A DNA stretch of 64,000 bases. It comes from Escherichia phage vB_EcoM_EC001. The notes beneath the pieces are model-generated. The model did no database searches. It was not told the DNA's origin and saw only the letters and a program-made list of their open reading frames with translations. The stretch lies in sequence record MN445185.1. The stretch is one strand, 5' to 3'. Positions within the stretch are counted from its first letter, which is position 1. Each line of letters starts with the position of its first letter. Both the position numbers and the translations under genes were made by a program. This document shows, one piece after another, positions 6,492 through 56,466 of this stretch.

Positions 6492-8454
6492 GATCCAAGA
6501 TCAGCGTCCGGGTAATGCCCGTCGCCCTAATCCCGACCAGCCAGCCCCTGTGGCGGCTGCTACCCAACAAGAGATGATTCTTCCGACCGTGCCTGATGAC
6601 GCGACCTCGGATGCAATCATCATGGCTATTAAACAAGCCAATCCCGATTTTTCTTTTGCCCGTGCAGAAGAAGTTTATCACCAACACTATCATCGTCCGG
6701 AGCCTAAGCTTGAGCGTCCGACGTTTGTAGAAGAGGCGTTGCCTGAACCTGCTGCACCTGTACCACCGGCACCTCAGACTTTTGCTGAACAGGTGCAGGA
6801 GCACCTACATCGTGCCCCGGAACCGGTAGTAGAGAAAGCGCCTACGGTAGAACCTGCTCCGCAGCCAAAAGCTCCGGAAGCGGTTGCACCGGCACAGCCG
6901 GCTGTAAAAGAAATGGAAGATGCAGCACCGAAGGTTCCGGAACAACAACAGATGCGTGAGATTGACTTCGGTAATACCCATTTAGCTGAAACCGCCGAAA
7001 TGGGTGAAGATGAAGCCGATCGTATTCTGACACAGTCGAAGATGTTGATTGGTCTGAAACAAGACCCTAACATCATTGCAGACTCCCTGCAAAAGTTCCT
7101 CGGTAATATTAAACGTTCACCGAAAGACGGCCGGCTGCTATTCGAAAGCCCTGAACAGCAACAGGTTTACGACGACATCTATCGTGCTTTGAACATGACC
7201 CCGCCACGTCTACAGGACGGCGTACCGGCATTCGCGGGTGCACTGGACCGTGGTGATACCGCTTGGGAACAGCGTGTGATGTTGCCGGACGGCAAGGCAT
7301 CTGGTGCTATTGCACCGCGTGACAATATGCACACTGGCGCGCTGGCTGCCTTACGTCGTGTACGTAAGTCGGGTATTCCGAACATGGTTTGGTTGCCGGC
7401 CACAGGTATCTACGTGGGCTTCCGCGCACCGCACGAACGTGACCTTTGTGACTTCGACATGCGTCTAACGCTGGAAACTGCGACCATCGGTATGCAGACC
7501 TACGGATTGATGCTGTCGTCGTCTTCTGGCGTGTACATGCGCCACATGGTTGAATTCGCACTTCAGTTTGTTACCGAAGCAACCATCGATTGTGCGGGTA
7601 ACGATCTGCGTACGGTGCTGTTGGATACCATTGATCTGGCTGACTACTGGCTGGTTATTCTGGGTCCGTTGCAGGCGAAGTGGCCGTCTGGTATTCCATG
7701 GACGCTGATGTGTGGCGAAGACGGTTGCAACCAGCAGGAAGATGTGAAGCTGAACATCGCGCGTTGTATCCGTTTCGGTTCCGGACTGTTTAGCGACCTG
7801 CAGAAACAACTGTGGGCACGTCAACGCGGTACTGAGCGTCCAGTGATTTCTATTGCAGAACAGCGCGAATATATCGCGGCGCATCAGGTTGATCCGTCCT
7901 CGGTATTTGAATACCACGACGTGCGTGTTGAATTTGGCCGTTCCACCCTGGGTAGCTTCTTTGACTCCACCGAGAAGTGGATTGAAGACGTTAACGCGTC
8001 AACTACGGCAGCGCTGTCTGAATTTGCTACCGAGCGTGAACGTGAATCCCATATGCGTTTAACTGCGGAAGCCCGTCGCTTAACGCGTTACGCTCACATG
8101 GTGAAGTCTATCACTGTTAATGAGCAACGTGAAGTAAACGGTGAAATGCAGGTTATCCCACAAACTGAAACCGACACAGCGAAAATCGTTGAGATGCTGG
8201 AAGAGCTGTCTTCCGACCGTATCTACGTTGGTCAGTTTGAAAACGCGATTGCTGAATACAACGAACGTACACGTTTAGCGGTATTCGGTTACATGGGTAA
8301 ACGCTGCCCGGCGTGTGGTAAAACACACGGCGAGAAAGACGGTCTGTATCGCGGTATTGTTACCATCAGTCCGGACAGGGTTTTTTTCGTGCTCTCTCGA
8401 GTGGTGTCCGAGATTCAGAAATTCTTGCTGGATCAATACGCCGATATTGGCTAG
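6484..8454 (+). CDS. hypothetical protein with Pro/Ala-rich N-terminal low-complexity region (656 aa)
   Basis: Long ORF, start overlaps upstream stop (ATGTCTGA); C-terminal CPACGK motif. Confidence 0.8.
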   Translation: MSEIQDQRPGNARRPNPDQPAPVAAATQQEMILPTVPDDATSDAIIMAIKQANPDFSFARAEEVYHQHYHRPEPKLERPTFVEEALPEPAAPVPPAPQTFAEQVQEHLHRAPEPVVEKAPTVEPAPQPKAPEAVAPAQPAVKEMEDAAPKVPEQQQMREIDFGNTHLAETAEMGEDEADRILTQSKMLIGLKQDPNIIADSLQKFLGNIKRSPKDGRLLFESPEQQQVYDDIYRALNMTPPRLQDGVPAFAGALDRGDTAWEQRVMLPDGKASGAIAPRDNMHTGALAALRRVRKSGIPNMVWLPATGIYVGFRAPHERDLCDFDMRLTLETATIGMQTYGLMLSSSSGVYMRHMVEFALQFVTEATIDCAGNDLRTVLLDTIDLADYWLVILGPLQAKWPSGIPWTLMCGEDGCNQQEDVKLNIARCIRFGSGLFSDLQKQLWARQRGTERPVISIAEQREYIAAHQVDPSSVFEYHDVRVEFGRSTLGSFFDSTEKWIEDVNASTTAALSEFATERERESHMRLTAEARRLTRYAHMVKSITVNEQREVNGEMQVIPQTETDTAKIVEMLEELSSDRIYVGQFENAIAEYNERTRLAVFGYMGKRCPACGKTHGEKDGLYRGIVTISPDRVFFVLSRVVSEIQKFLLDQYADIG

Positions 8455-26720: not shown

Positions 26721-26746
26721 ATTTCAGATATATATTACCTAGGTGA
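26721..26746 (+). promoter_or_regulatory. phage promoter-like motif, class I (ATTTCAGATATATATTACCTAGGTGA)
   Basis: 26/26 identical to 35839..35864; just downstream of a terminator, 43 nt before ATG 26789. Confidence 0.6.
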
Positions 26747-26788
26747 GATTGCATTGGTAATCTTTTAACCGACTATCACTTAAGGAAT

Positions 26789-27550
26789 ATGAAAATGAAA
26801 ACTATCAATCTGCTCACTCTGGCTAATGGCTCTATCGAACGTAACGAAGACGACGGTGCTATCCTGCAAGCAACCAACGGCTTTAAAGTTATACTGTCCC
26901 CAATTCAATTCACAGGCTTACAAGTCTGGCTGCGCGAAATCAACAAACGCAAACTGCCGCGTCGTATGGCGGTTGGCGACCTGCTCTTTACACTGGATAA
27001 CGTTGACGGTGTTAAACCGGAACTGTACGAAGTTCAGTACAAAGCCGCAGTCGATACACTGCGACTGAAGAAAGGGGAAGAAATCAAATTCATTCCGGTG
27101 ACCTATAATGGTAACACTTACCTGCAGATGGAAGACACTCCGTTCGCTGCGCACGTCACTGACACTGCTGTTGAACTGGTCATTGCCATTGGTCTGGTTG
27201 CGACTCCGGCGGTACTGGAAGTCAGCGAAGATCCACTGCAGGATTTCGGTACGCTGTTCGAAACCATACTGGGTGGCACGAAGCTCGGGAACATCACCAA
27301 GGTCATCCGCCGTATTCCGATTCGGAATGCGCAGCCGAAAGTGATGACGCTGGCAGAAAGCATGACGGAACACCCGGAGCTGACTGCTGAAGAAATTCAG
27401 GCGCAAGAAGAAGCAATTGAAGAAGAACGTCAGAACGCCCAGCGTGAAGCCATGAAGCCGTTCCGTGGTTTCCTGGATGCTATCTTCGACTGTGCGAACT
27501 CGCTGATGAAACCGGTTGAAGTGAAAACCGCTGAAGAACCAGCAGCGTAA
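26789..27550 (+). CDS. hypothetical protein (253 aa)
   Basis: First gene after the promoter motif; TAAGGAA SD. Confidence 0.7.
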   Translation: MKMKTINLLTLANGSIERNEDDGAILQATNGFKVILSPIQFTGLQVWLREINKRKLPRRMAVGDLLFTLDNVDGVKPELYEVQYKAAVDTLRLKKGEEIKFIPVTYNGNTYLQMEDTPFAAHVTDTAVELVIAIGLVATPAVLEVSEDPLQDFGTLFETILGGTKLGNITKVIRRIPIRNAQPKVMTLAESMTEHPELTAEEIQAQEEAIEEERQNAQREAMKPFRGFLDAIFDCANSLMKPVEVKTAEEPAA

Positions 27551-28573: not shown

Positions 28574-29121
28574 AACTCTCTATTATCGTCGCGATGGACC
28601 GCAACAATGCCATCGGTAAAAACAATGAACTGCCGTGGCGTCTGCCTGCCGACCTGGCTAACTTTAAGGCAATTACCACAGGGAAGAACGTTATCATGGG
28701 TAGTAGGACCTGGGAATCGTTAGGTTGTCGTCCTTTGCCTAACCGCGGCAACTTAATTGTTACTCGTAACCCAGAAGGGTACATCAATGGCCGGGAAGAA
28801 CACACGGACATGCGTTTGGTGACGTTTCACACGAGTATTGATTTAGCCATCAAAGCTCTGGAACGTATCGAGAAAGATACCGGAAAAGAGCAAGAGGTGA
28901 TGATTATTGGTGGCGCATCAGTTTATCAACAAACCCTCGCTCGTGCGGATCGTATTTATCTATCGCGTATTGACATCGCTGTTGAAGGTGCCGATGCTTT
29001 CTTCCCAGAAATTGACAGAGATGTTTTTCAAGTCGATTACACCATGACCCATTTACCCGACGGCCAGAAACACACGCACCGTTGGACGTATCAAATTTTA
29101 AATCGTATCGCTGGAGTTTAA
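28570..29121 (+). CDS. folA: dihydrofolate reductase (183 aa)
   Basis: Matches DHFR family signatures (NAIGKNNELPW, LPADLANFK, VIMGSRTWES, PLPNRGNLIVT, MIIGGASVY, IDIAVEGADAFFPE); GTG start with AGGAG SD. Confidence 0.9.
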   Translation: MKLSIIVAMDRNNAIGKNNELPWRLPADLANFKAITTGKNVIMGSRTWESLGCRPLPNRGNLIVTRNPEGYINGREEHTDMRLVTFHTSIDLAIKALERIEKDTGKEQEVMIIGGASVYQQTLARADRIYLSRIDIAVEGADAFFPEIDRDVFQVDYTMTHLPDGQKHTHRWTYQILNRIAGV

Positions 29122-29122
29122 A

Positions 29123-29452
29123 GTGGAAAAGAAATCTGTTAAAGGTTACGTGATGGAAGTAACCCCAAAAGCGGCTGAACTGGCGAGAGAATATACCGGA
29201 TGTATCGTGCCACTGACCTCAATCGTGGTGTGTGAGGGTTCCTTCTATCTCATCTTCGGCAGTAATGAGCCGGTCTATGCGTACATCGATGACCCTGATC
29301 AAGTTACAGCCCTCTCTATTGCGATGGGTAAAATGGTATCAGACAAGATGATTGAATTCGTTGTCGGGAAAACGATGGACATTATCCGCAATCCGGTTGG
29401 ACACAGCGGAATAAAATGTAAGAAGTGGCAGCTAGCTTGGCTGGCACATTAA
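29123..29452 (+). CDS. hypothetical protein (109 aa)
   Basis: GTG 29123 with GGAG SD right after the DHFR stop; alternative ATG 29153. Confidence 0.55.
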   Translation: MEKKSVKGYVMEVTPKAAELAREYTGCIVPLTSIVVCEGSFYLIFGSNEPVYAYIDDPDQVTALSIAMGKMVSDKMIEFVVGKTMDIIRNPVGHSGIKCKKWQLAWLAH

Positions 29453-29479
29453 ACGGTTATCTTCTTAAGGAGTATTAAA

Positions 29480-30070
29480 ATGCTTAGTGAACGTGCGCCC
29501 CGTTTAGAAGCGGCGGTATTGAAAATTGAACGTGTGAATATCAAATTGTTATCGAACGATGTTGGTCGGGCATCGTACAGTGACTTATGGAGTATCCCCG
29601 CACCACCGCGTACGTTGGTGGTGAACTGGTTAACGAATCGTTTGGGCTCATGCGATGTTAAAGCCAAGGATGTCGTACTAACGCTACCTGACGGCAAAAC
29701 AACTACCGGCGATGTGTTGATTGCCAGTGGTTCTAAATTGCGTATGGGCGATATTCGCTTGGGTGAGTCCTATCTTCCGGACGGTATGCGACCTATGCCG
29801 ATTGGCGAGGTAGAAAACCGAATTCTGGAAAAAGAAAGAGTGCTGGCGTTCATACGCCGCCCGCCGGATAGCACGGTGTCGTTTAAGCAACGTAAACCGG
29901 CTGCAGACAACACACCCGTTGTCGAGTGGCTCGAAAAGTATTTTGGCGAATATGGCATCAGTCCTGATGAGGTCATTCTCATCAACGGCCACGCCATGAT
30001 GCCGTTTAAGCCCAGCCCGTATTACACGATGGGACAACTGCGCGCTTCCTTCAAAGGGAAAGCACGCTAA
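29480..30070 (+). CDS. hypothetical protein (196 aa)
   Basis: CTTAAGGAGTATT SD context; followed by terminator. Confidence 0.7.
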   Translation: MLSERAPRLEAAVLKIERVNIKLLSNDVGRASYSDLWSIPAPPRTLVVNWLTNRLGSCDVKAKDVVLTLPDGKTTTGDVLIASGSKLRMGDIRLGESYLPDGMRPMPIGEVENRILEKERVLAFIRRPPDSTVSFKQRKPAADNTPVVEWLEKYFGEYGISPDEVILINGHAMMPFKPSPYYTMGQLRASFKGKAR

Positions 30071-30076
30071 AGTGTG

Positions 30077-30104
30077 GGGGACTTCGGTCCCCTTTCTTTT
30101 TTTG
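30077..30104 (+). terminator. rho-independent terminator
   Basis: GGGGAC-TTCG-GTCCCC hairpin then T-run. Confidence 0.8.
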
Positions 30105-30144
30105 CGTTTTAGGCCAGTGATATGACTACAACGAGGGACAGCTA

Positions 30145-31647
30145 ATGCAACAGTATTTTGAAATTCCATCGTTGGACAAGACCATGCGCAAAGCTGTGGT
30201 CGACGGCGTCGTAGAACGTGTGCTAAACGAATCTGGTATTGAACGTGCCAGTGTTGTTTTCACGGATAGCTTCAACACCGCCCATCAGCCAGGCTCTACG
30301 CTCGGCGATGAGACACCGGTGGACTATTCAGCACCGAACCGTGTCTACGTCGAAGTGGAAGAAGAACGTGATGAACGCGCACGCATTAACCGTCAAGTTG
30401 GGTTAGCGGCAGAGATTCCATTCTTCCATAACCCCGAAGACCAAGTACGCGCCGCTCCTGTCCGCGTAATGTATAACGTGACTATCACGCTACGGCGTGT
30501 CGGCCCATCGCGTGACGAATTGTTACGTTGGGCGAACCGCCTGGATTCACTTATCGACATGGGTCGCTATTCAACCATGACGGAATCCGAAGCGTACTAC
30601 TTGATTCCAAAACCTGCGCTTAAGCTATTGAACGAATGCTATATCGCCGCAGGGACCCGTGTGCCGAAATACGATGACTTTAAAGATTATCTAAAGGCGC
30701 ACTTCACACCCGACGTTTTCACCACAGGTAATGTTGCCGGTGGTCAGAATGTCTTAGCGGTACGCTACGCACCAACCCGTATCGAGACGGTTTACGATGT
30801 TATCTCTCCTACCTGGGATAACGACGAAAACCGTTACGAGACCAGCTTCGTTATACGCTTCTCATATCAGCGACCCGAAGAGGTGGTGATTACCTACCCG
30901 TACATTATCAACCAGACACCGTTGCCTGATGAATGGTGGCCTGAGATAGACCCACCGTTTGTGAGTAATGAAGAGGGTGTGCAACGTCACCAACAGCAAA
31001 AGAACCTCGACGGCACTTGGTGGATTAATGAATCTCGCCAGTTCTTACGCCTACCGTATCTGCTGTCACCGACAGAACAGTTTGAACGTACACACTCGCC
31101 GCTAAAAGCAAAGCTTCTGCATGTGTTCGGCACCGATGTAGCCTTCGGTGAAGAAAACATGATCGACCCTGAGGTTTGTAGTATCGATGATTTACCGTAT
31201 GTCTGGAATGCCGACGTGGTTCCTTATATCGAACACTGTCGCACGATAGACCCGACAGGTCAGACTGGCATTATCCGTATGGAATTGTTCGAGAATGGTC
31301 AAATCATTGAACCACGTTTCTACCATTGGGAAAACGGCGTCTTCTCGCTACGTAACCGTGAAGTTCATGTCGAGAAAGCGTACTACTTAACAGAGTCGGC
31401 AATACACGACTGGCGTAATATGGACTTATGGCCACTGCATCTTTATCCAAAAGCGGCAAAAGTGCTTATTGAGTGGTTATTCCCAGATTGGGATTGCCCG
31501 GATTGGTGGTGGGATAAACCTGTGTTACCACCAAGTGTGATTGATGAAATCACGAAGTTCTATCGCCGTGTCCTGTTGACGCAATTTAATACCACGATTA
31601 TAGCCATCAGAGGAGCCGATAATGCTCAAGGCGAACAAGAGGGGTGA
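30145..31647 (+). CDS. hypothetical protein, first of a five-gene operon (500 aa)
   Basis: GAGGGA SD; long ORF. Confidence 0.75.
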   Translation: MQQYFEIPSLDKTMRKAVVDGVVERVLNESGIERASVVFTDSFNTAHQPGSTLGDETPVDYSAPNRVYVEVEEERDERARINRQVGLAAEIPFFHNPEDQVRAAPVRVMYNVTITLRRVGPSRDELLRWANRLDSLIDMGRYSTMTESEAYYLIPKPALKLLNECYIAAGTRVPKYDDFKDYLKAHFTPDVFTTGNVAGGQNVLAVRYAPTRIETVYDVISPTWDNDENRYETSFVIRFSYQRPEEVVITYPYIINQTPLPDEWWPEIDPPFVSNEEGVQRHQQQKNLDGTWWINESRQFLRLPYLLSPTEQFERTHSPLKAKLLHVFGTDVAFGEENMIDPEVCSIDDLPYVWNADVVPYIEHCRTIDPTGQTGIIRMELFENGQIIEPRFYHWENGVFSLRNREVHVEKAYYLTESAIHDWRNMDLWPLHLYPKAAKVLIEWLFPDWDCPDWWWDKPVLPPSVIDEITKFYRRVLLTQFNTTIIAIRGADNAQGEQEG

Positions 31648-32977
31648 TACTAAATTCGTTCCTGTTGAACCTGAAATTCCGATTATCAATAAACCGCAGG
31701 ACGGGGTGAAAGAAGCCAGCAACTTGGTAACGATTCCAACCCGCACCACGGTAACGGACTTCGACAGGATTCCGAAACAGTATCTCCTGCAATACAACGA
31801 AGGTTCTGAATGGCCGGTTGATTTTTATCACGCGTTGTCGGGTCGCAACGATCCGAAGACGATGTTCGATACTCAGAATGACAGCCCTACGCAACAGCTG
31901 CTTAAGATTGTTAATCTGTCATTACGTGTTAACGCACCGCTCGACCGTACGCAGGACGAACAACGTAAGACTTTCGAACTGACCGGGACGTCGACCCTGG
32001 TAGCATCGATTACACCGAACGAGGGTGACTTCTTTGTTGCGCCGATAGGCGACCATCGCCACGGTCTGTTTAACATCACTGCCGTTACCCGAATGTCGAA
32101 CAACAAAATTGCAACGTACCAGATACGTTACACGATGTTGTACGAGATTACACCGCAGATTGCAGAGACGATTCGTCTGTGCACTGTGAGAACGCTCCAT
32201 TACGTCCGTGAGCGCGCGTGGACCGGTGGTGATACCTTACTGACCCCCAACGAGTATCGTACGTTCCTGGAGCTGGGAGACCGCATTAAGGACATTGAGA
32301 CGACGTTTGTTCGCCGTTTCTACGATACCAGTTTAGAAACCCTCGCCTATCCACGTGACTGGAAACTCGACGGGTTAAAGGCGGGGGGTTATTACGACGT
32401 TTTCTTGGCGATGTTTGTGAAGGCTATTGGTCTTCGAACCGTTGGTAAAGATATCCGTATTTACCCGCACCCGCCGAAACCCGTGCAAGATATCGAAACG
32501 CTGTTCACGGTGTTGTTAAATCAACAGCCAGAACTGCTACCTTACGTCGAGAAAGAATGCAGCGCAGTTAACCCGCGCACGTTCAGAACGATGCAGACCC
32601 GCAACACTATTGCATGGTCACAGTTCAGTTCGACGCGTTACTTTACATCACAGATTCGTCAGTTGGCAACGTACGATGGGGAGTGGCCAGAGTTCGAAGC
32701 ATTCGAACCGGTTATGTTCCCTGAGTATCATGGCAACGCAGGCGAGGATATGGTGGCTTTTCTGCCGTTGACGTATAAACCCTACCTGTTAAGCGAAACG
32801 TTCTATAGCGGCTCGTACAGCTCGGTTCTGGAGCATTGTTTGTACCTGTATCTGAACAAACAACCAGTACCTAGTGAAGTGGCTGCGCGTTTAGCAGAAT
32901 TGGTGCTGGCTTTACCGAAGGACAGTCAGTTCTATTACGTCCCGATGGTCTACGTGATTTTGAAATACGCGAGGTAG
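31622..32977 (+). CDS. hypothetical protein (451 aa)
   Basis: AGGAG SD; overlaps upstream gene end. Confidence 0.75.
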   Translation: MLKANKRGDTKFVPVEPEIPIINKPQDGVKEASNLVTIPTRTTVTDFDRIPKQYLLQYNEGSEWPVDFYHALSGRNDPKTMFDTQNDSPTQQLLKIVNLSLRVNAPLDRTQDEQRKTFELTGTSTLVASITPNEGDFFVAPIGDHRHGLFNITAVTRMSNNKIATYQIRYTMLYEITPQIAETIRLCTVRTLHYVRERAWTGGDTLLTPNEYRTFLELGDRIKDIETTFVRRFYDTSLETLAYPRDWKLDGLKAGGYYDVFLAMFVKAIGLRTVGKDIRIYPHPPKPVQDIETLFTVLLNQQPELLPYVEKECSAVNPRTFRTMQTRNTIAWSQFSSTRYFTSQIRQLATYDGEWPEFEAFEPVMFPEYHGNAGEDMVAFLPLTYKPYLLSETFYSGSYSSVLEHCLYLYLNKQPVPSEVAARLAELVLALPKDSQFYYVPMVYVILKYAR

Positions 32978-32979
32978 TA

Positions 32980-33519
32980 ATGTCGGAGAAGAAGCGCAGT
33001 GCAGCATTTATGCTGTTTAAAGCGTGGGTGTTCTTCCGGGTACCGGAATACGCAACCATCACAACCTACGCCAGTCAGGAACACGGATTGTTCTTGCCAG
33101 AAGACCCGAAGAAACGACAAGCGTTGTTACTGAACATGAAGCCTATCTATCTGCACCCCTCAGAAGCTGCCGAGTATTTAGCGACCGGTGGTGCGTTAGA
33201 TGTACACGACCCGCATGACGGGATTAAAGTGTACGGGTGGATTATGGAACACCTTGCGGACTGGCTGAACTATCTGGAGAACCCGACGCTGATTTACCGG
33301 GAAGTCCCTATCGAAGGGTTGCGTCAGTTCAATGTGCTGGCTTCGAAACTGTTTCCTGTGGCTAACCGCTACGGGTATTTCAAGAAACCCACTGCAACGA
33401 TGGCGGACTGTGTTCAGTCGTTATTTGGGCAGGTCCGCCTGGAGTCTAAACTCCACCGTTTTAATGATACGATTATGAAACGTATTGAGTACGCTTATAG
33501 AGCCCGAGGAGGTCGCTAA
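32980..33519 (+). CDS. hypothetical protein (179 aa)
   Basis: GAGG SD; starts 3 nt after upstream stop. Confidence 0.7.
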   Translation: MSEKKRSAAFMLFKAWVFFRVPEYATITTYASQEHGLFLPEDPKKRQALLLNMKPIYLHPSEAAEYLATGGALDVHDPHDGIKVYGWIMEHLADWLNYLENPTLIYREVPIEGLRQFNVLASKLFPVANRYGYFKKPTATMADCVQSLFGQVRLESKLHRFNDTIMKRIEYAYRARGGR

Positions 33520-34875: not shown

Positions 34876-35673
34876 ATGAAAGCGATTCACACCTTTCGCA
34901 TGACCGGCCAAACTGTTCTCGACATTGATGCGTATGAAGCCGCTAACTTCACCAAACCGACCAAGCTCTGGGATCGCTTGGTTAAGGTACTGCCGCAAAG
35001 CGGTGAGGTGCAGTTGGATTTTGTCATGGCATCGACGTTGGATAAAACAGTGGCAGTTATTTATACTGCTGACGGTGTGCAGAGTAAGAAGGACCTGGCA
35101 ATCGAAGATAAAGGCGGGCTGGGTTATCACTTGTTCCTGCACTGCGTAACCACTGCACCGATTTCAGCTGCGCTGGCGGGACAGTACGGTTTCGCGAATG
35201 CGTATTTCCTGGCACAGAAACTCGCCGTGAATGTTATTCCGGGTGACGTGACCACTTACCCTGAATACGTACAGCGTATCCTGCCAGAGCACTTCGCTGC
35301 AGACGACTACGATTTCAACGTGTTCCGTTTCGCATTGATCGGCGAATCGCGCGATCCAGAATACACCGTTGGCTTGCGTGCCTGTCTGCGTCACTCCGTT
35401 ATCTCTTCGGATGAAGGGATGTCGAATAACGTGAACGAAGTGTTCCCGATGATGCAAGTCGGTCCGTATATCACTTTCAACTCGTACATTCCGTTCCCGG
35501 CACAGATTCTGCCGCCGCAGAACGATAACAGTGTACTGCCAATCGCCGACAAGTATTCACTGCGTGCGAGCGAAGCAGTTGAAGTGATTAACGATCGTCG
35601 CTTTACATTGTCAGTGACCAGCGGCATCAGTGAACCGGAAGTTGCGGTCTCTCAGAGCCTGGATTTGATGTAA
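34876..35673 (+). CDS. hypothetical protein, possibly structural (265 aa)
   Basis: CTTAAGGA SD; moderately biased codon usage; followed by terminator. Confidence 0.75.
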   Translation: MKAIHTFRMTGQTVLDIDAYEAANFTKPTKLWDRLVKVLPQSGEVQLDFVMASTLDKTVAVIYTADGVQSKKDLAIEDKGGLGYHLFLHCVTTAPISAALAGQYGFANAYFLAQKLAVNVIPGDVTTYPEYVQRILPEHFAADDYDFNVFRFALIGESRDPEYTVGLRACLRHSVISSDEGMSNNVNEVFPMMQVGPYITFNSYIPFPAQILPPQNDNSVLPIADKYSLRASEAVEVINDRRFTLSVTSGISEPEVAVSQSLDLM

Positions 35674-35680
35674 AAGTGTG

Positions 35681-35715
35681 CCTGGTCTCCTTGTGAGACC
35701 AGGTCTCTTTATTTT
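35681..35715 (+). terminator. rho-independent terminator
   Basis: CCTGGTCTC/GAGACCAGG hairpin then T-rich run. Confidence 0.75.
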
Positions 35716-35717
35716 AG

Positions 35718-35828
35718 CCCTCTAAACGCACTCACAACCTTCTAAAGCCTCTCTAACGGTAGAACGACCCTCTAAAGTGATAAAAGCTCTCAAAACGCGT
35801 TTGAGAGCGTTATAGAGGGTATACTCTG
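35718..35828 (+). repeat. array of CCCTCTAAA(G)-like direct repeats plus near-palindrome CTCTCAAAACGCGTTTGAGAG
   Basis: Copies at 35718, 35738, 35748, 35768; palindrome 35787..35807; inverted TATAGAGGGTATA at 35811. Confidence 0.6.
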
Positions 35829-35838
35829 AATAAAAATA

Positions 35839-35864
35839 ATTTCAGATATATATTACCTAGGTGA
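35839..35864 (+). promoter_or_regulatory. phage promoter-like motif, class I (ATTTCAGATATATATTACCTAGGTGA)
   Basis: Identical to 26721..26746; 52 nt upstream of ATG 35916. Confidence 0.6.
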
Positions 35865-35915
35865 TAGAAGACAATCTATCAACTCAATCGACTATTAATC
35901 TAAAGGAGTATTGCC

Positions 35916-36059
35916 ATGTTAACTCGTAACCATAAACGTGCCATCTTCGCCATCGTTGCTGTTGTTGCTTTCGCGGTATTGTCTATCACTGTAACTCAAG
36001 ATTACAACAAATGCATCGATAACGGTAACTCTGTTGCCATGTGTACAGGTCGCGGCTAA
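35916..36059 (+). CDS. small membrane protein (47 aa, one TM helix)
   Basis: TAAAGGAGT SD 6 nt upstream; hydrophobic core AIFAIVAVVAFAVLSITV; below the ORF-track size cutoff. Confidence 0.5.
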   Translation: MLTRNHKRAIFAIVAVVAFAVLSITVTQDYNKCIDNGNSVAMCTGRG

Positions 36060-36241
36060 TGGACTTTTCTGATACGCAGTTTGCCGAGTTCTTATCTCAC
36101 CCGCGTGTTAAACGTGAGTGGGATAATCTCACTAACGGTGTTCGTCATCAGGACGAAGAAGAAATTGTTCACGTTACCGCGCAAGTCTTACTCGTCTCAC
36201 CGACAGGTAATGTGTTTCCAATGCAGCAGGAGATTTACTAA
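36059..36241 (+). CDS. small hypothetical protein (60 aa)
   Basis: ATG overlaps upstream stop (TAATG); the track start 36041 is a GTG inside the upstream ORF. Confidence 0.5.
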   Translation: MDFSDTQFAEFLSHPRVKREWDNLTNGVRHQDEEEIVHVTAQVLLVSPTGNVFPMQQEIY

Positions 36242-36429
36242 TGGGCGTTTTAGTTAATTACGATGGTAAAAACGGAATCGTGCTTCGCGAAGTGGAAGAT
36301 AACGAAACAGTAGAGGTGAATCCGCAAACCTCAGAACGTACGTTTATCGTGGGGCCGAAAAGCGCATTACCGAAGCCGGACTGGAAAGAAGAGCTGGCGA
36401 AGTTCCGTGGGGAACTCGGGAAGAAGTAG
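36241..36429 (+). CDS. small hypothetical protein (62 aa)
   Basis: TAATG coupling; followed by terminator. Confidence 0.5.
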   Translation: MGVLVNYDGKNGIVLREVEDNETVEVNPQTSERTFIVGPKSALPKPDWKEELAKFRGELGKK

Positions 36430-36442
36430 TATAGATAATTTA

Positions 36443-36470
36443 ATACCACCTACGGGTGGTATTATTTTTT
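36443..36470 (+). terminator. rho-independent terminator
   Basis: ATACCACC-TACG-GGTGGTAT hairpin then T6. Confidence 0.75.
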
Positions 36471-36481
36471 GCCTAAGGAAC

Positions 36482-36904
36482 ATGAAAATGATTAATGAGA
36501 AGCTCCAAAAGTATTTAAAGAACGACACTGACTGGATGGTTCTTGACCAGTACGGACGATTTGTTCCGCTATCCAAGGATTCCCCTATACCCCGTGACAA
36601 GGCGATTTATATTCCTGACGGTAAGGGTGGCTATCGTTTCTGGGAAGGCCAGGAAGTAAAAGAGGAAATGTTCTACATGGAGCCGAAGTTCCGTGCAGCG
36701 TTCCCATCGAAAAATATTAACGGATATGTTTACAACGCAATTCCGCCAATCACGCATCCTAACTTTGAGGTTGTGAACTACCCCGCAACTGTTCTGGATT
36801 GGCAACGTGCCATTAGTGAACACTACACGATTCCGCTTGAAGGTGTTTACTTCCCATTCCGTGATATTAGTTTAGATGACTTTATTAACTCTCTTAAGGA
36901 CTAA
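36482..36904 (+). CDS. hypothetical protein (140 aa)
   Basis: CTAAGGAA SD then ATG 36482; the track start 36407 is a GTG inside the upstream gene and terminator. Confidence 0.65.
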   Translation: MKMINEKLQKYLKNDTDWMVLDQYGRFVPLSKDSPIPRDKAIYIPDGKGGYRFWEGQEVKEEMFYMEPKFRAAFPSKNINGYVYNAIPPITHPNFEVVNYPATVLDWQRAISEHYTIPLEGVYFPFRDISLDDFINSLKD

Positions 36905-42889: not shown

Positions 42890-42922
42890 ATAATTCTTTT
42901 GGTATTATTACTGGGATGTTCA

Positions 42923-55827: not shown

Positions 55828-56466
55828 ATGCAATTACAATTTCGTCAACGGTCTGTACTACTACCGTTTAGCGCTATATTAGGTTCGTTTACCAAAATGC
55901 TGTCTGTGGATTTTACTGCAGCTGAGAAAGAAGCGCTGTTATTGGCGGCAGTCGAAGAAGTATTGTGGGAGGCATTTTACGTAGTGCCGTTTCGTAGCTG
56001 CTTAAACGCCCCGTATGTTGAAGGGCAGTTTGTCAGCGCGCTTTCCGCCGCGATTACCAAACGTAAACTAAATGCCATGGCGCATGTCAAAGAGATCACC
56101 GCGCAACGAGGACGGATATTCGCTGCCGTCAGAAATGTGTTAATTAAAGAAGGGTTTCTTGCAGATGCGTTAGGTCCCGAAGTTCCTTGGGAACCAGGCC
56201 ATCCGCCGCGTCAGTTTGACCACGGGTACAAGTTAAATATAATTATGCCACGCGGTAAGCGTGACGTCTCATTGGGGAAATGGTTACAGATAAGTTGGGT
56301 TCGTCCTACTATCGATTGGCAAGAAATGTCGGTCAATCGCTATCTGGAACACCTGGCAAAAACACCGGCACAGTTTCACCGTTCAACAATCCTGCCGCTA
56401 CACATGCTGTTAAAACCGTCCCTGTCATTGGCAGAAGCCAGATACCTGCTTAGTGGAGAGAAGTGA
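55828..56466 (+). CDS. hypothetical protein (212 aa)
   Basis: AAAGGAA SD. Confidence 0.65.
   Translation: MQLQFRQRSVLLPFSAILGSFTKMLSVDFTAAEKEALLLAAVEEVLWEAFYVVPFRSCLNAPYVEGQFVSALSAAITKRKLNAMAHVKEITAQRGRIFAAVRNVLIKEGFLADALGPEVPWEPGHPPRQFDHGYKLNIIMPRGKRDVSLGKWLQISWVRPTIDWQEMSVNRYLEHLAKTPAQFHRSTILPLHMLLKPSLSLAEARYLLSGEK

Follow-up and report, generated by a model that had tools for sequence, protein, structure and literature searches.

A predicted membrane peptide with an almost invariant cysteine-containing C terminus in a small, likely early gene cassette of SPN3US-like jumbo phages

Within a stretch of 64,000 nucleotides (nt) of Escherichia phage vB_EcoM_EC001 (MN445185.1), referred to here as the window, we analyzed a cassette of three small genes on the plus strand. 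The first open reading frame (ORF1, 35916-36059) encodes 47 amino acids (aa), ORF2 (36059-36241) encodes 60 aa with an isoelectric point (pI) of 4.7, and ORF3 (36241-36429) encodes 62 aa with a pI of 5.4, the latter two products being classed as soluble. TAATG overlaps join the ORF1 stop to the ORF2 start and the ORF2 stop to the ORF3 start, and a terminator-like hairpin closes the group; a preliminary description of this DNA had reported the three coupled ORFs and the terminator, and we find them at the positions given there. It had also attributed to ORF1 a strong Shine-Dalgarno (SD) sequence, which is AAGGAG at 35903-35908, 7 nt 5' of the ATG. An AGGAG of its own lies 8 nt 5' of the ORF3 start. 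For ORF2 the upstream SD is reduced to AGG, so that translation of this gene probably depends on coupling.

A megablast search with positions 35600-36600 matched 38 phage records. The closest were Salmonella phages SPLA1a and SPLA5c, at 99.3% identity, and the identity to SPN3US was 97.9%. Based on these top matches, we assign the stretch to a jumbo phage of the SPN3US type in the genus Seoulvirus, which is related to phiKZ. The SPN3US annotation lists the three products as hypothetical proteins, under the names ACQ60_gp200, ACQ60_gp199, and ACQ60_gp198. Throughout the SPN3US record, subtracting the ACQ60 number from 266 gives the original gene number, and ORF1, ORF2, and ORF3 thus correspond to gp66, gp67, and gp68, respectively. 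The rule agrees with the published numbering of gp64, an essential virion protein of 437 aa, and of gp75, the major capsid protein (PMC5105663).

The preliminary description had made its reading of the cassette depend on conservation in related phages, and all three ORFs are conserved. They are annotated in more than 30 phage records, and tblastn matched ORF1, ORF2, and ORF3 in 62, 45, and 40 phage records, respectively; Erwinia phages account for 27 of the ORF1 records, and protein-level conservation of all three reaches Erwinia phages. We compared 13 loci from the genera Seoulvirus, Machinavirus, Wellingtonvirus, and Erskinevirus. The ratio of nonsynonymous to synonymous substitution rates (dN/dS; Nei-Gojobori) between this stretch and its relatives was 0.06-0.33, with synonymous sites saturated; medians over all pairs, likewise with saturated dS, were 0.30 for ORF1, 0.14 for ORF2, and 0.26 for ORF3. 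All three are real protein-coding genes under purifying selection, already present in databases and uncharacterized. An alternative GTG start for ORF2 at 36041, proposed in the ORF list, was rejected, given that all homologs begin with M-D/T-F-S-D at the ATG. Two minus-strand ORFs (36258-36449 and 36367-36600) were also rejected, given the purifying selection on the plus-strand frames.

Database searches place the products in families but say little about what they do. All three match PHROGs end to end, gp66 to PHROG 8574 (E = 1.7e-28), gp67 to PHROG 14868 (E = 1.2e-37), and gp68 to PHROG 16804 (E = 1.4e-32), and membership in these families, which carry no function annotation, is uninformative on function. 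Scans of the three products against Pfam, NCBIfam, and PADLOC returned nothing meaningful: Pfam gave only two matches far below threshold (E 0.13-0.23), and PADLOC gave 0 matches at E ≤ 1. For gp66, OapA_N (E = 0.23) was the only Pfam match at E ≤ 1, and neither MgrB (PF13998) nor Hok/Gef (PF01848) was matched. A sequence search of the PDB yielded no match for gp67, one match at E = 0.63 for gp68, and only noise (E ≥ 0.12) for the gp66 family profile. An Rfam search over 35400-36700 gave no match. The role in anti-defense or host takeover that had been suggested for these genes thus found no support in the PADLOC, NCBIfam, Pfam, and PDB searches, nor in a fold search with gp68.

For gp66, we aligned 13 phage homologs and extended the alignment to 33 cluster representatives. 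Family members are 45-51 aa long. Their first 8 residues are basic, residues ~9-26 form a hydrophobic segment of variable sequence, and the C terminus is almost invariant, reading D-Y-N/D-x-C-x-x-N-G-N/H-S-x-x-x-C-T-G-R-G-stop. The invariant columns are C33, G37, S39, C43, T44, G45, and R46, and the columns of the transmembrane (TM) segment vary. In the present phage the loop reads C33-x2-N-G-N-S-x3-C43-T-G-R-G and lies within the C-terminal 21 residues. The single-TM core predicted earlier for ORF1 corresponds to residues 10-26, with a mean Kyte-Doolittle (KD) hydropathy of 2.9 and a summed Hessa free energy (dG) of -2.7 kcal/mol. All 33 family members have a TM segment (mean hydropathy 2.5) and contain a 17-residue window of mean KD ≥ 1.9.

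Over the same 33 sequences, net charge averages +3.6 in the N-terminal flank and -0.7 in the C-terminal flank. Because the N-terminal flank is basic, the positive-inside rule predicts a bitopic protein with its N terminus inside and its C terminus outside (N-in/C-out). C33 and C43, with nine residues between them, are most simply read as closing a disulfide loop. As judged by inspection of the alignment only, no conserved AxA-like cleavage site follows the hydrophobic segment, which comprises 17-18 residues compared with 7-15 in a Sec signal. We considered a lipoprotein and rejected it for the present gp66, which has no cysteine before residue 33; a lipobox is not a shared feature of the family.

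A profile of the gp66 family searched against 1.84 billion representatives found only seven at E ≤ 1e-10, all of 45-51 aa, plus four weak matches, and no link to any named family. No paralog of gp66 was found in SPN3US. One of the weak matches (E = 1e-5) is an otherwise unrelated 381-aa protein on a metagenome contig (P0033; L029:448-1593) with a signal peptide and hydrophobic segments, in which four tandem copies of A-Y-N-x-C-I-G-N-G-x-S-x-x-Q-C lie downstream of the hydrophobic N-terminal region. This arrangement suggests that the cysteine loop may be able to function by itself as a repeat unit. The same protein is the sole hint of a gp66-type cysteine loop outside jumbo phages, and the match is weak.

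Transcription of the cassette would begin at the motif termed class I in the preliminary description, AATAAAAATAATTTCAGATATATATTACCTAGGTGA, which lies on the plus strand at 35829-35864 and resembles in sequence the early promoters read by the virion RNA polymerase (RNAP) of phiKZ. Its core, TATATTAC, occupies 35849-35856. The 26-mer ATTTCAGATATATATTACCTAGGTGA occurs exactly twice in the window, both times on the plus strand, with cores at 26731 and 35849. Allowing up to 2 mismatches, the 13-mer TATATTACCTAGG has 4 matches in the window; shuffled sequences averaged 0.77 and never exceeded 3. The SPN3US genome contains 6 copies of the full motif (cores at 56299, 65418, 94244, 113991, 165692, and 223282), all on the plus strand and each upstream of a plus-strand gene. 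Five of the 6 run directly into an SD and start codon; the copy at 165692 first meets a terminator-like hairpin. The genes that follow comprise five without assigned function and one encoding a helix-turn-helix protein. In most related loci, from Seoulvirus, Machinavirus, and Erskinevirus, the motif occurs once and heads the cassette that holds the gp66 homolog, and two divergent relatives from metagenomes carry it as well; only two loci, both from Wellingtonvirus, gave no match to the search pattern. Alignment of 15 instances identified a conserved GATTA-AAAA-n-ATTTCAGATA 5' of the core, constituting an upstream A/T-rich element.

The motif TTTCAGATATATATTACCTAGGTGA has its core in common with phiKZ early promoters. 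The shared core is TTTnAGATnTATATTAC, which is also that of the promoter of PHIKZ054. In the first 50 kb of phiKZ, TATATTAC occurs upstream of PHIKZ005, 006, 010.1, 031, 036, and 054, the last being the shell-protein gene, and in these copies the core is preceded by (T)TTnAGAT and an A-run. Differential RNA sequencing has mapped a primary start with an early promoter motif at PHIKZ054 (PMC8244752). Reviews describe the early promoters of phiKZ-like phages as AT-rich, with a conserved element of ~10 nt centered near -10 that is read by the virion RNAP, and as lying upstream of genes for hypothetical proteins; in 201phi2-1 and phiKZ, conservation has been described around -10, -20, and -30. The class I motif agrees with this description in its AT-rich -10 core and upstream A/T elements, its intergenic position, its overrepresentation, and its orientation toward small hypothetical genes. 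As in phiKZ and 201phi2-1, an AT-rich TATATTAC core follows (T)TTnAGAT and an A-rich stretch, sites lie between genes just 3' of a terminator and drive small, co-oriented, unannotated genes, and copies number from a few to a few dozen per genome. It differs from the promoters of those phages in that the SPN3US-type motif is extended 3' (CYTAGGTGAG) and is followed by a hairpin at a fixed position and a TCGACYAT module, and in that SPN3US has only 6 full copies, beside a second, related class, AGATAGATATTATCT.

A scan for sigma-70 promoters found none in the intergenic region, and overall counts were not above those in shuffled sequences; a promoter for the host RNAP is therefore not indicated. 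Because the motif resembles phiKZ early promoters, including the mapped promoter of PHIKZ054, early expression of the gp66-gp68 unit is likely, and the promoter-like character and probable early use of the class I motif proposed in the preliminary description are supported. The literature that we searched contained no SPN3US transcriptome and no mapped start site or expression timing for this phage group, and a full-text search for "TATATTAC" returned unrelated papers only.

Between promoter and ORF1 lie two further conserved elements. A leader hairpin, TGATAGA-agacaa-TCTATCA (35862-35881, plus strand), begins 6 nt 3' of the promoter core and is predicted to lie at or near the 5' end of the transcript. 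A perfect hairpin of at least 6 bp, 5-9 nt after the core, is present in 11 of 15 leaders, compared with a mean of 0.54 and a maximum of 4 in shuffled sequences, and one also follows the other class I copy of the window, at 26746-26764. Since these hairpins comprise at least seven distinct stems (for example, GATAGA/TCTATC, GAGAGTT/AACTCTC, and AGCGTTA/TAACGCT), pairing appears to be maintained while the sequence drifts. The hairpin is probably a 5'-terminal stem-loop of early transcripts, possibly acting in their stability, or a part of promoter recognition.

The second element is an extended ribosome-binding module, TCGACTATTAATCTAAAGGAG (35888-35908, plus strand), which combines a TCGACYAT box with the SD of ORF1. 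Its consensus is (A)ATCGACYAT-TA-n-CTTAAGGAGTATT, and a second copy lies at 26769-26788 of the window. In SPN3US, TCGACYAT is found directly 5' of an SD and start codon in 11 of its 28 copies, and CTTAAGGAGTAT is among the commonest 12-mers of the genome. The box is retained before gp66 homologs even where no promoter is adjacent. The module may be a translational enhancer or a processing site.

At the 3' end, a terminator-like hairpin, TAATACCACC-tacg-GGTGGTATTA, followed by T7 closes the cassette (36441-36471, with the hairpin at 36441-36464, plus strand). Its stem of 10 bp (-15.9 kcal/mol with flanks) has the sequence characteristics of an intrinsic terminator, and all 13 related loci examined have a hairpin with a T-run in the corresponding place. 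The bounded unit of promoter, small genes, and GC hairpin with T-run is thus conserved; its gene content is variable. The genes had been described as promoter-proximal, which holds for the SPN3US lineage but not for relatives: in 12 related loci of other phages, 1-4 other small genes intervene between the promoter and the gp66 homolog. In SPAsTU and pEa_SNUABM_29 the promoter is followed by one other small gene, by gp66-gp67-gp68, and then by a fourth gene of 93-94 aa. An 81-aa gene comes first in the cassettes of Asesino and phiEaH2. The Machinavirus phages Huxley, pEa6, Caitlin, and ChrisDB have gp66 together with other genes, without gp67 or gp68. Promoter proximity of gp66 is a trait of the SPN3US lineage with its shorter cassette and not of the gene. 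The sole gene common to all cassettes examined is gp66. A 45-aa protein among the weak profile matches (P0036, E = 2.7e-4) is its true positional counterpart in a divergent relative, on a contig that carries genes of 429 and 246 aa homologous to gp64 and gp65, a TTTCAGATATATATTAC promoter, two small genes, the peptide, two more genes, and a reversed divergent DnaB gene.

As a separate observation, a hotspot for the gain and loss of small genes lies between gp65 and the DnaB helicase gene. In some of pEa_SNUABM_29, pSal-SNUABM-04, and SPAsTU, a gene of ~134 aa annotated as "putative DNA ligase (adenylation domain)" lies 5' of the class I promoter; this gene and the fourth gene of 93-94 aa after gp68 are both missing from the window. 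Such turnover between genera would fit an explanation in which the three ORFs, although conserved, are "moron-like" cargo of a hypervariable slot that the phage can do without in standard laboratory infection. The main text of the paper on SPN3US essential genes and the virion proteome (PMC5105663) mentions none of the three. Purifying selection on all three genes and the presence of gp66 in every cassette examined, including that of the distant syntenic relative, speak against cargo, and dispensability in the laboratory would not equal lack of function. We regard cargo as a rather unlikely explanation.

Differences in distribution also bear on the possibility that gp66, gp67, and gp68 form one small complex, in which gp66 would serve as a membrane tether for the two acidic soluble proteins, or would signal to them, and coupling would serve stoichiometric assembly. 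TAATG overlaps join the three genes, and the order gp66-gp67-gp68 is kept wherever they co-occur. Both gp67 and gp68 are acidic, lack hydrophobic segments, and are restricted to the same phage clade as gp66. The conserved core of gp67 is F-x-E-F-x3-P-R-x-K-R-E-W-D-N-L-x-N-G ... V-T-A-Q-V, and gp68 has a conserved C-terminal helix, P-D-W-K-x-E-L-A-x-F-R, predicted together with four short strands. AlphaFold model confidence is low for both proteins, with a predicted local distance difference test score (pLDDT) of 65 and a predicted TM-score (pTM) of 0.25 for gp67, and values of 69 and 0.33, respectively, for gp68. A Foldseek search of the gp68 model against BFVD and the PDB retrieved its own homolog only. 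The narrower spread of gp67 and gp68 (45 and 40 phage records, compared with 62 for gp66) argues against an obligate complex, as do the cassettes of Huxley, pEa6, and Caitlin, in which gp66 stands without these partners. Moreover, the cytoplasmic part of gp66 would comprise only ~8 residues, and such gene overlaps are common genome-wide. A complex of this kind is thus very unlikely in our estimation.

Taken as a whole, the reading that we prefer is of an early unit of a nucleus-forming jumbo phage, transcribed by the virion RNAP, that encodes, in gp66, a membrane-anchored peptide whose periplasmic disulfide loop binds a conserved target in the cell envelope; we hold it tentatively and put its chances at slightly below even. 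The injected virion RNAP would read the TATATTAC-core promoter of this self-contained unit, generating an mRNA that would start at ~35862-35866 with a short 5' hairpin, carry a standard strong ribosome-binding module and three translationally coupled cistrons, and end at the intrinsic terminator. The gp66 peptide would then insert into the inner membrane as a type II signal-anchor, with its basic N terminus in the cytoplasm and one helix across the membrane. Its last ~20 residues would be periplasmic, and DsbA would oxidize the two cysteines to form an 11-residue loop followed by the C-terminal TGRG. We take the loop to be the working part of gp66 because the loop is invariant and the helix is not; the helix would be a mere anchor. 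The loop would bind a conserved periplasmic or periplasm-facing envelope protein, in a manner comparable to MgrB and PhoQ. As a target, a host envelope protein common to Salmonella and Erwinia and modulated early would be the first choice, ahead of a component of an incoming related phage; the membrane itself seems an unlikely target. Together with gp66, gp67 and gp68 would be made as small acidic cytoplasmic proteins.

The closest functional analogy is to MgrB, a 47-aa N-in/C-out peptide of E. coli and Salmonella, the periplasmic two-cysteine region of which inhibits the sensor kinase PhoQ. MgrB has two conserved cysteines approximately 10 residues apart, which are required for its activity. 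What it shares with the architecture predicted for gp66 is the length of 47 aa, one N-in/C-out helix with a short tail in the periplasm, and a pair of conserved cysteines. Unlike MgrB, gp66 is phage-encoded, and its loop, C-x2-NGNS-x3-CTGRG-COOH, is unrelated, so that the analogy is functional only. Most small membrane regulators bind their partners via their helices; gp66 differs from them in that its invariant part is the exposed loop.

Several observations weigh against the envelope-binding proposal. A comparison of gp66 with E. coli MgrB by hhalign gave a probability of 23%, over the TM helix only. In some homologs from Erwinia phages the hydrophobic segment includes a cysteine (LAC|S or AAC|S), and UniRef gives one of them the name "Lipoprotein"; homologs with LAC|S could be lipoproteins and would then be anchored otherwise than by a TM helix. 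With regard to the transcript, the leader hairpin of this phage has little predicted stability (-6.6 kcal/mol), and shuffled sequences fold as well as the complete leader does (z = -0.36). The second promoter-like class, AGATAGATATTATCT, lies upstream of the SPN3US chimallin gene and RNAP beta-subunit genes, presumed to be non-virion, that must by necessity also be early. Finally, the proposal does not account for gp67 and gp68.

A pore former would share much of the architecture predicted for gp66. As a Hok-like or holin-like peptide, gp66 would oligomerize and depolarize or permeabilize the inner membrane for host shut-off or for the timing of lysis. Hok/Gef toxins and small holins resemble gp66 in their ~50 aa, single TM helix, and short cysteine-containing periplasmic tail, and this resemblance is one of architecture only, without homology. 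An hhalign comparison of gp66 with Hok gave a probability of 0.3%, and there was no Hok_Gef match in Pfam. Conservation runs in the reverse direction from that of a pore former, in that the TM helix is the least conserved part of gp66 and the soluble loop is invariant. Moreover, gp66 differs from these peptides in having an early-type promoter, and early depolarization would be harmful to a phage with a long cycle. The gene also lies outside a lysis cassette, the annotated endolysin ACQ60_gp110 being located at 135.4 kb, ~70 kb away. On grounds of this distance and of the promoter type we rejected a role in lysis, and pore formation in general seems highly improbable to us.

Another alternative is superinfection exclusion, in which the periplasmic loop of an early, membrane-anchored gp66 would block a conserved tail-tip or ejection component of incoming related jumbo phages, or a membrane step that they need. 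Imm and Sp of T4 are early, envelope-located superinfection-exclusion proteins. Like them, gp66 is small, is predicted to be early and located at the inner membrane and periplasm, would act on the envelope, and comes from a virulent myovirus; it differs in being about half their size and has no homology to them, and PHROGs and Pfam showed no relationship to exclusion proteins of any kind. Strong exclusion may not be general in the group, however, since related Pseudomonas chimalliviruses have been reported to co-infect. The early-type promoter and the predicted membrane anchor with its conserved periplasmic loop would suit an exclusion factor, and the restriction of the family to a jumbo-phage clade with conserved virion proteins would offer a possible phage target (Table 6, PMC5105663). 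On balance we consider exclusion unlikely.

Overall, we regard this as an ordinary early jumbo-phage cassette, with genes already in databases, a narrow distribution, and no pointer to a new mechanism. Follow-up seems worthwhile only for the gp66 family, which has an invariant loop of predicted periplasmic location and which we consider modestly interesting. Early genes of nucleus-forming jumbo phages are the expected seat of host takeover and counter-defense, and almost all of them are unannotated. The unit is compact, comprising promoter, 5' hairpin, ribosome-binding module, three cistrons, and terminator, and provides a test case for transcription by the virion polymerase in the Salmonella/Erwinia branch. 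Among jumbo-phage products, gp66 is one of few candidates for action in the periplasm, and its conserved C terminus of 15 residues is short enough for a direct test by point mutation. A more far-reaching and quite improbable reading makes gp66 the founder of a group of early, membrane-anchored envelope effectors of jumbo phages that dock through the invariant disulfide loop on a host envelope machine, such as a sensor kinase, an envelope-biogenesis protein, or a defense protein, or that insert into the membrane of the early-infection vesicle. If true, this would provide nucleus-forming phages with a handle on the cell from its periplasmic side. To our knowledge, no such handle is currently known for them.

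The cassette is located at the end of a structural-gene module, with gp64 two genes upstream of gp66 and gp65 between them. On its 3' side are gp69-gp72, for which no function is annotated, the reversed DnaB-like helicase gene gp73, and the major capsid gene; gp69 (36488-36904) has its SD and start immediately after the cassette terminator. The gp64/gp65 block is itself closed by a terminator-like hairpin, GCCTGGTCTC...GAGACCAGGT, with a T-rich tail (35680-35713, with the hairpin at 35680-35704, plus strand), which has a 10-bp stem with 6 GC pairs (-17.9 kcal/mol). From this terminator to the promoter (35716-35833) there are four to five imperfect CYCTCTAAA-like repeats at a spacing of 20-30 nt, together with a palindrome, AAAGCTCTCAAA-acgcg-TTTGAGAGCGTT, and TAGAGGGT, an inverted copy of ACCCTCTA. 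No second cluster of such repeats was found in the genome. Because relatives hold 1-2 extra genes at this position, the region may be a relic or a protein-binding array.

The second class I copy of the window (26721-26746) follows a T-rich terminator tail, with a gene start at ~26789-26795. It heads SPN3US gene 55 (ACQ60_gp211, 251 aa, PHROG 18643, no assigned function) and downstream genes that include one for dihydrofolate reductase. At 165692-165790 of SPN3US, a class I promoter and leader hairpin are followed by a GC hairpin (GGCTACCttcgGGTAGCC) with a T-run, a TCGACT box, and then a gene, an arrangement that could represent an attenuator or the source of a short early RNA.

SPN3US has ~9 copies of (C/G)AGATAGATATTATCT, the second promoter-like class and a relative of the TATATTAC class, with sites at 7394, 15711, 23814, 28973, 72490, 72688, 184048, and 191606; by estimate, the sites at 72490 and 72688 would lie near 42920 and 43120 of the window, respectively. 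Copies lie upstream of the chimallin gene, the RNAP beta-subunit genes (29014-33356), and the gene after the major capsid gene. A tblastn search of SPN3US with phiKZ chimallin gave no match; the SPN3US chimallin gene has been identified as ACQ60_gp244 (PMC9365700). We take the beta-subunit genes at 29014-33356 to be non-virion because they are absent among the virion subunits listed in PMC5105663.

Two further observations concern sequence records. In those of Salmonella phages SPFM1, 5-10, 12, 14, 15, and 20 (LR535901, LR535903-LR535908, LR535911-LR535913, and LR535917), the region aligns as 15-17 short fragments, with the three ORFs interrupted or unannotated, despite ~99% nucleotide identity, which looks like the result of indel-rich assemblies rather than biology. 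In addition, gp67 and gp68 were found on many contigs of ~240 kb deposited as Salmonella enterica (proteins P0045, P0046, P0049, and P0059), gp68 being recorded on 291 contigs, the longest of 244 kb. SPN3US-like genomes thus appear to be frequent in Salmonella isolate assemblies, via a carrier state or contamination.

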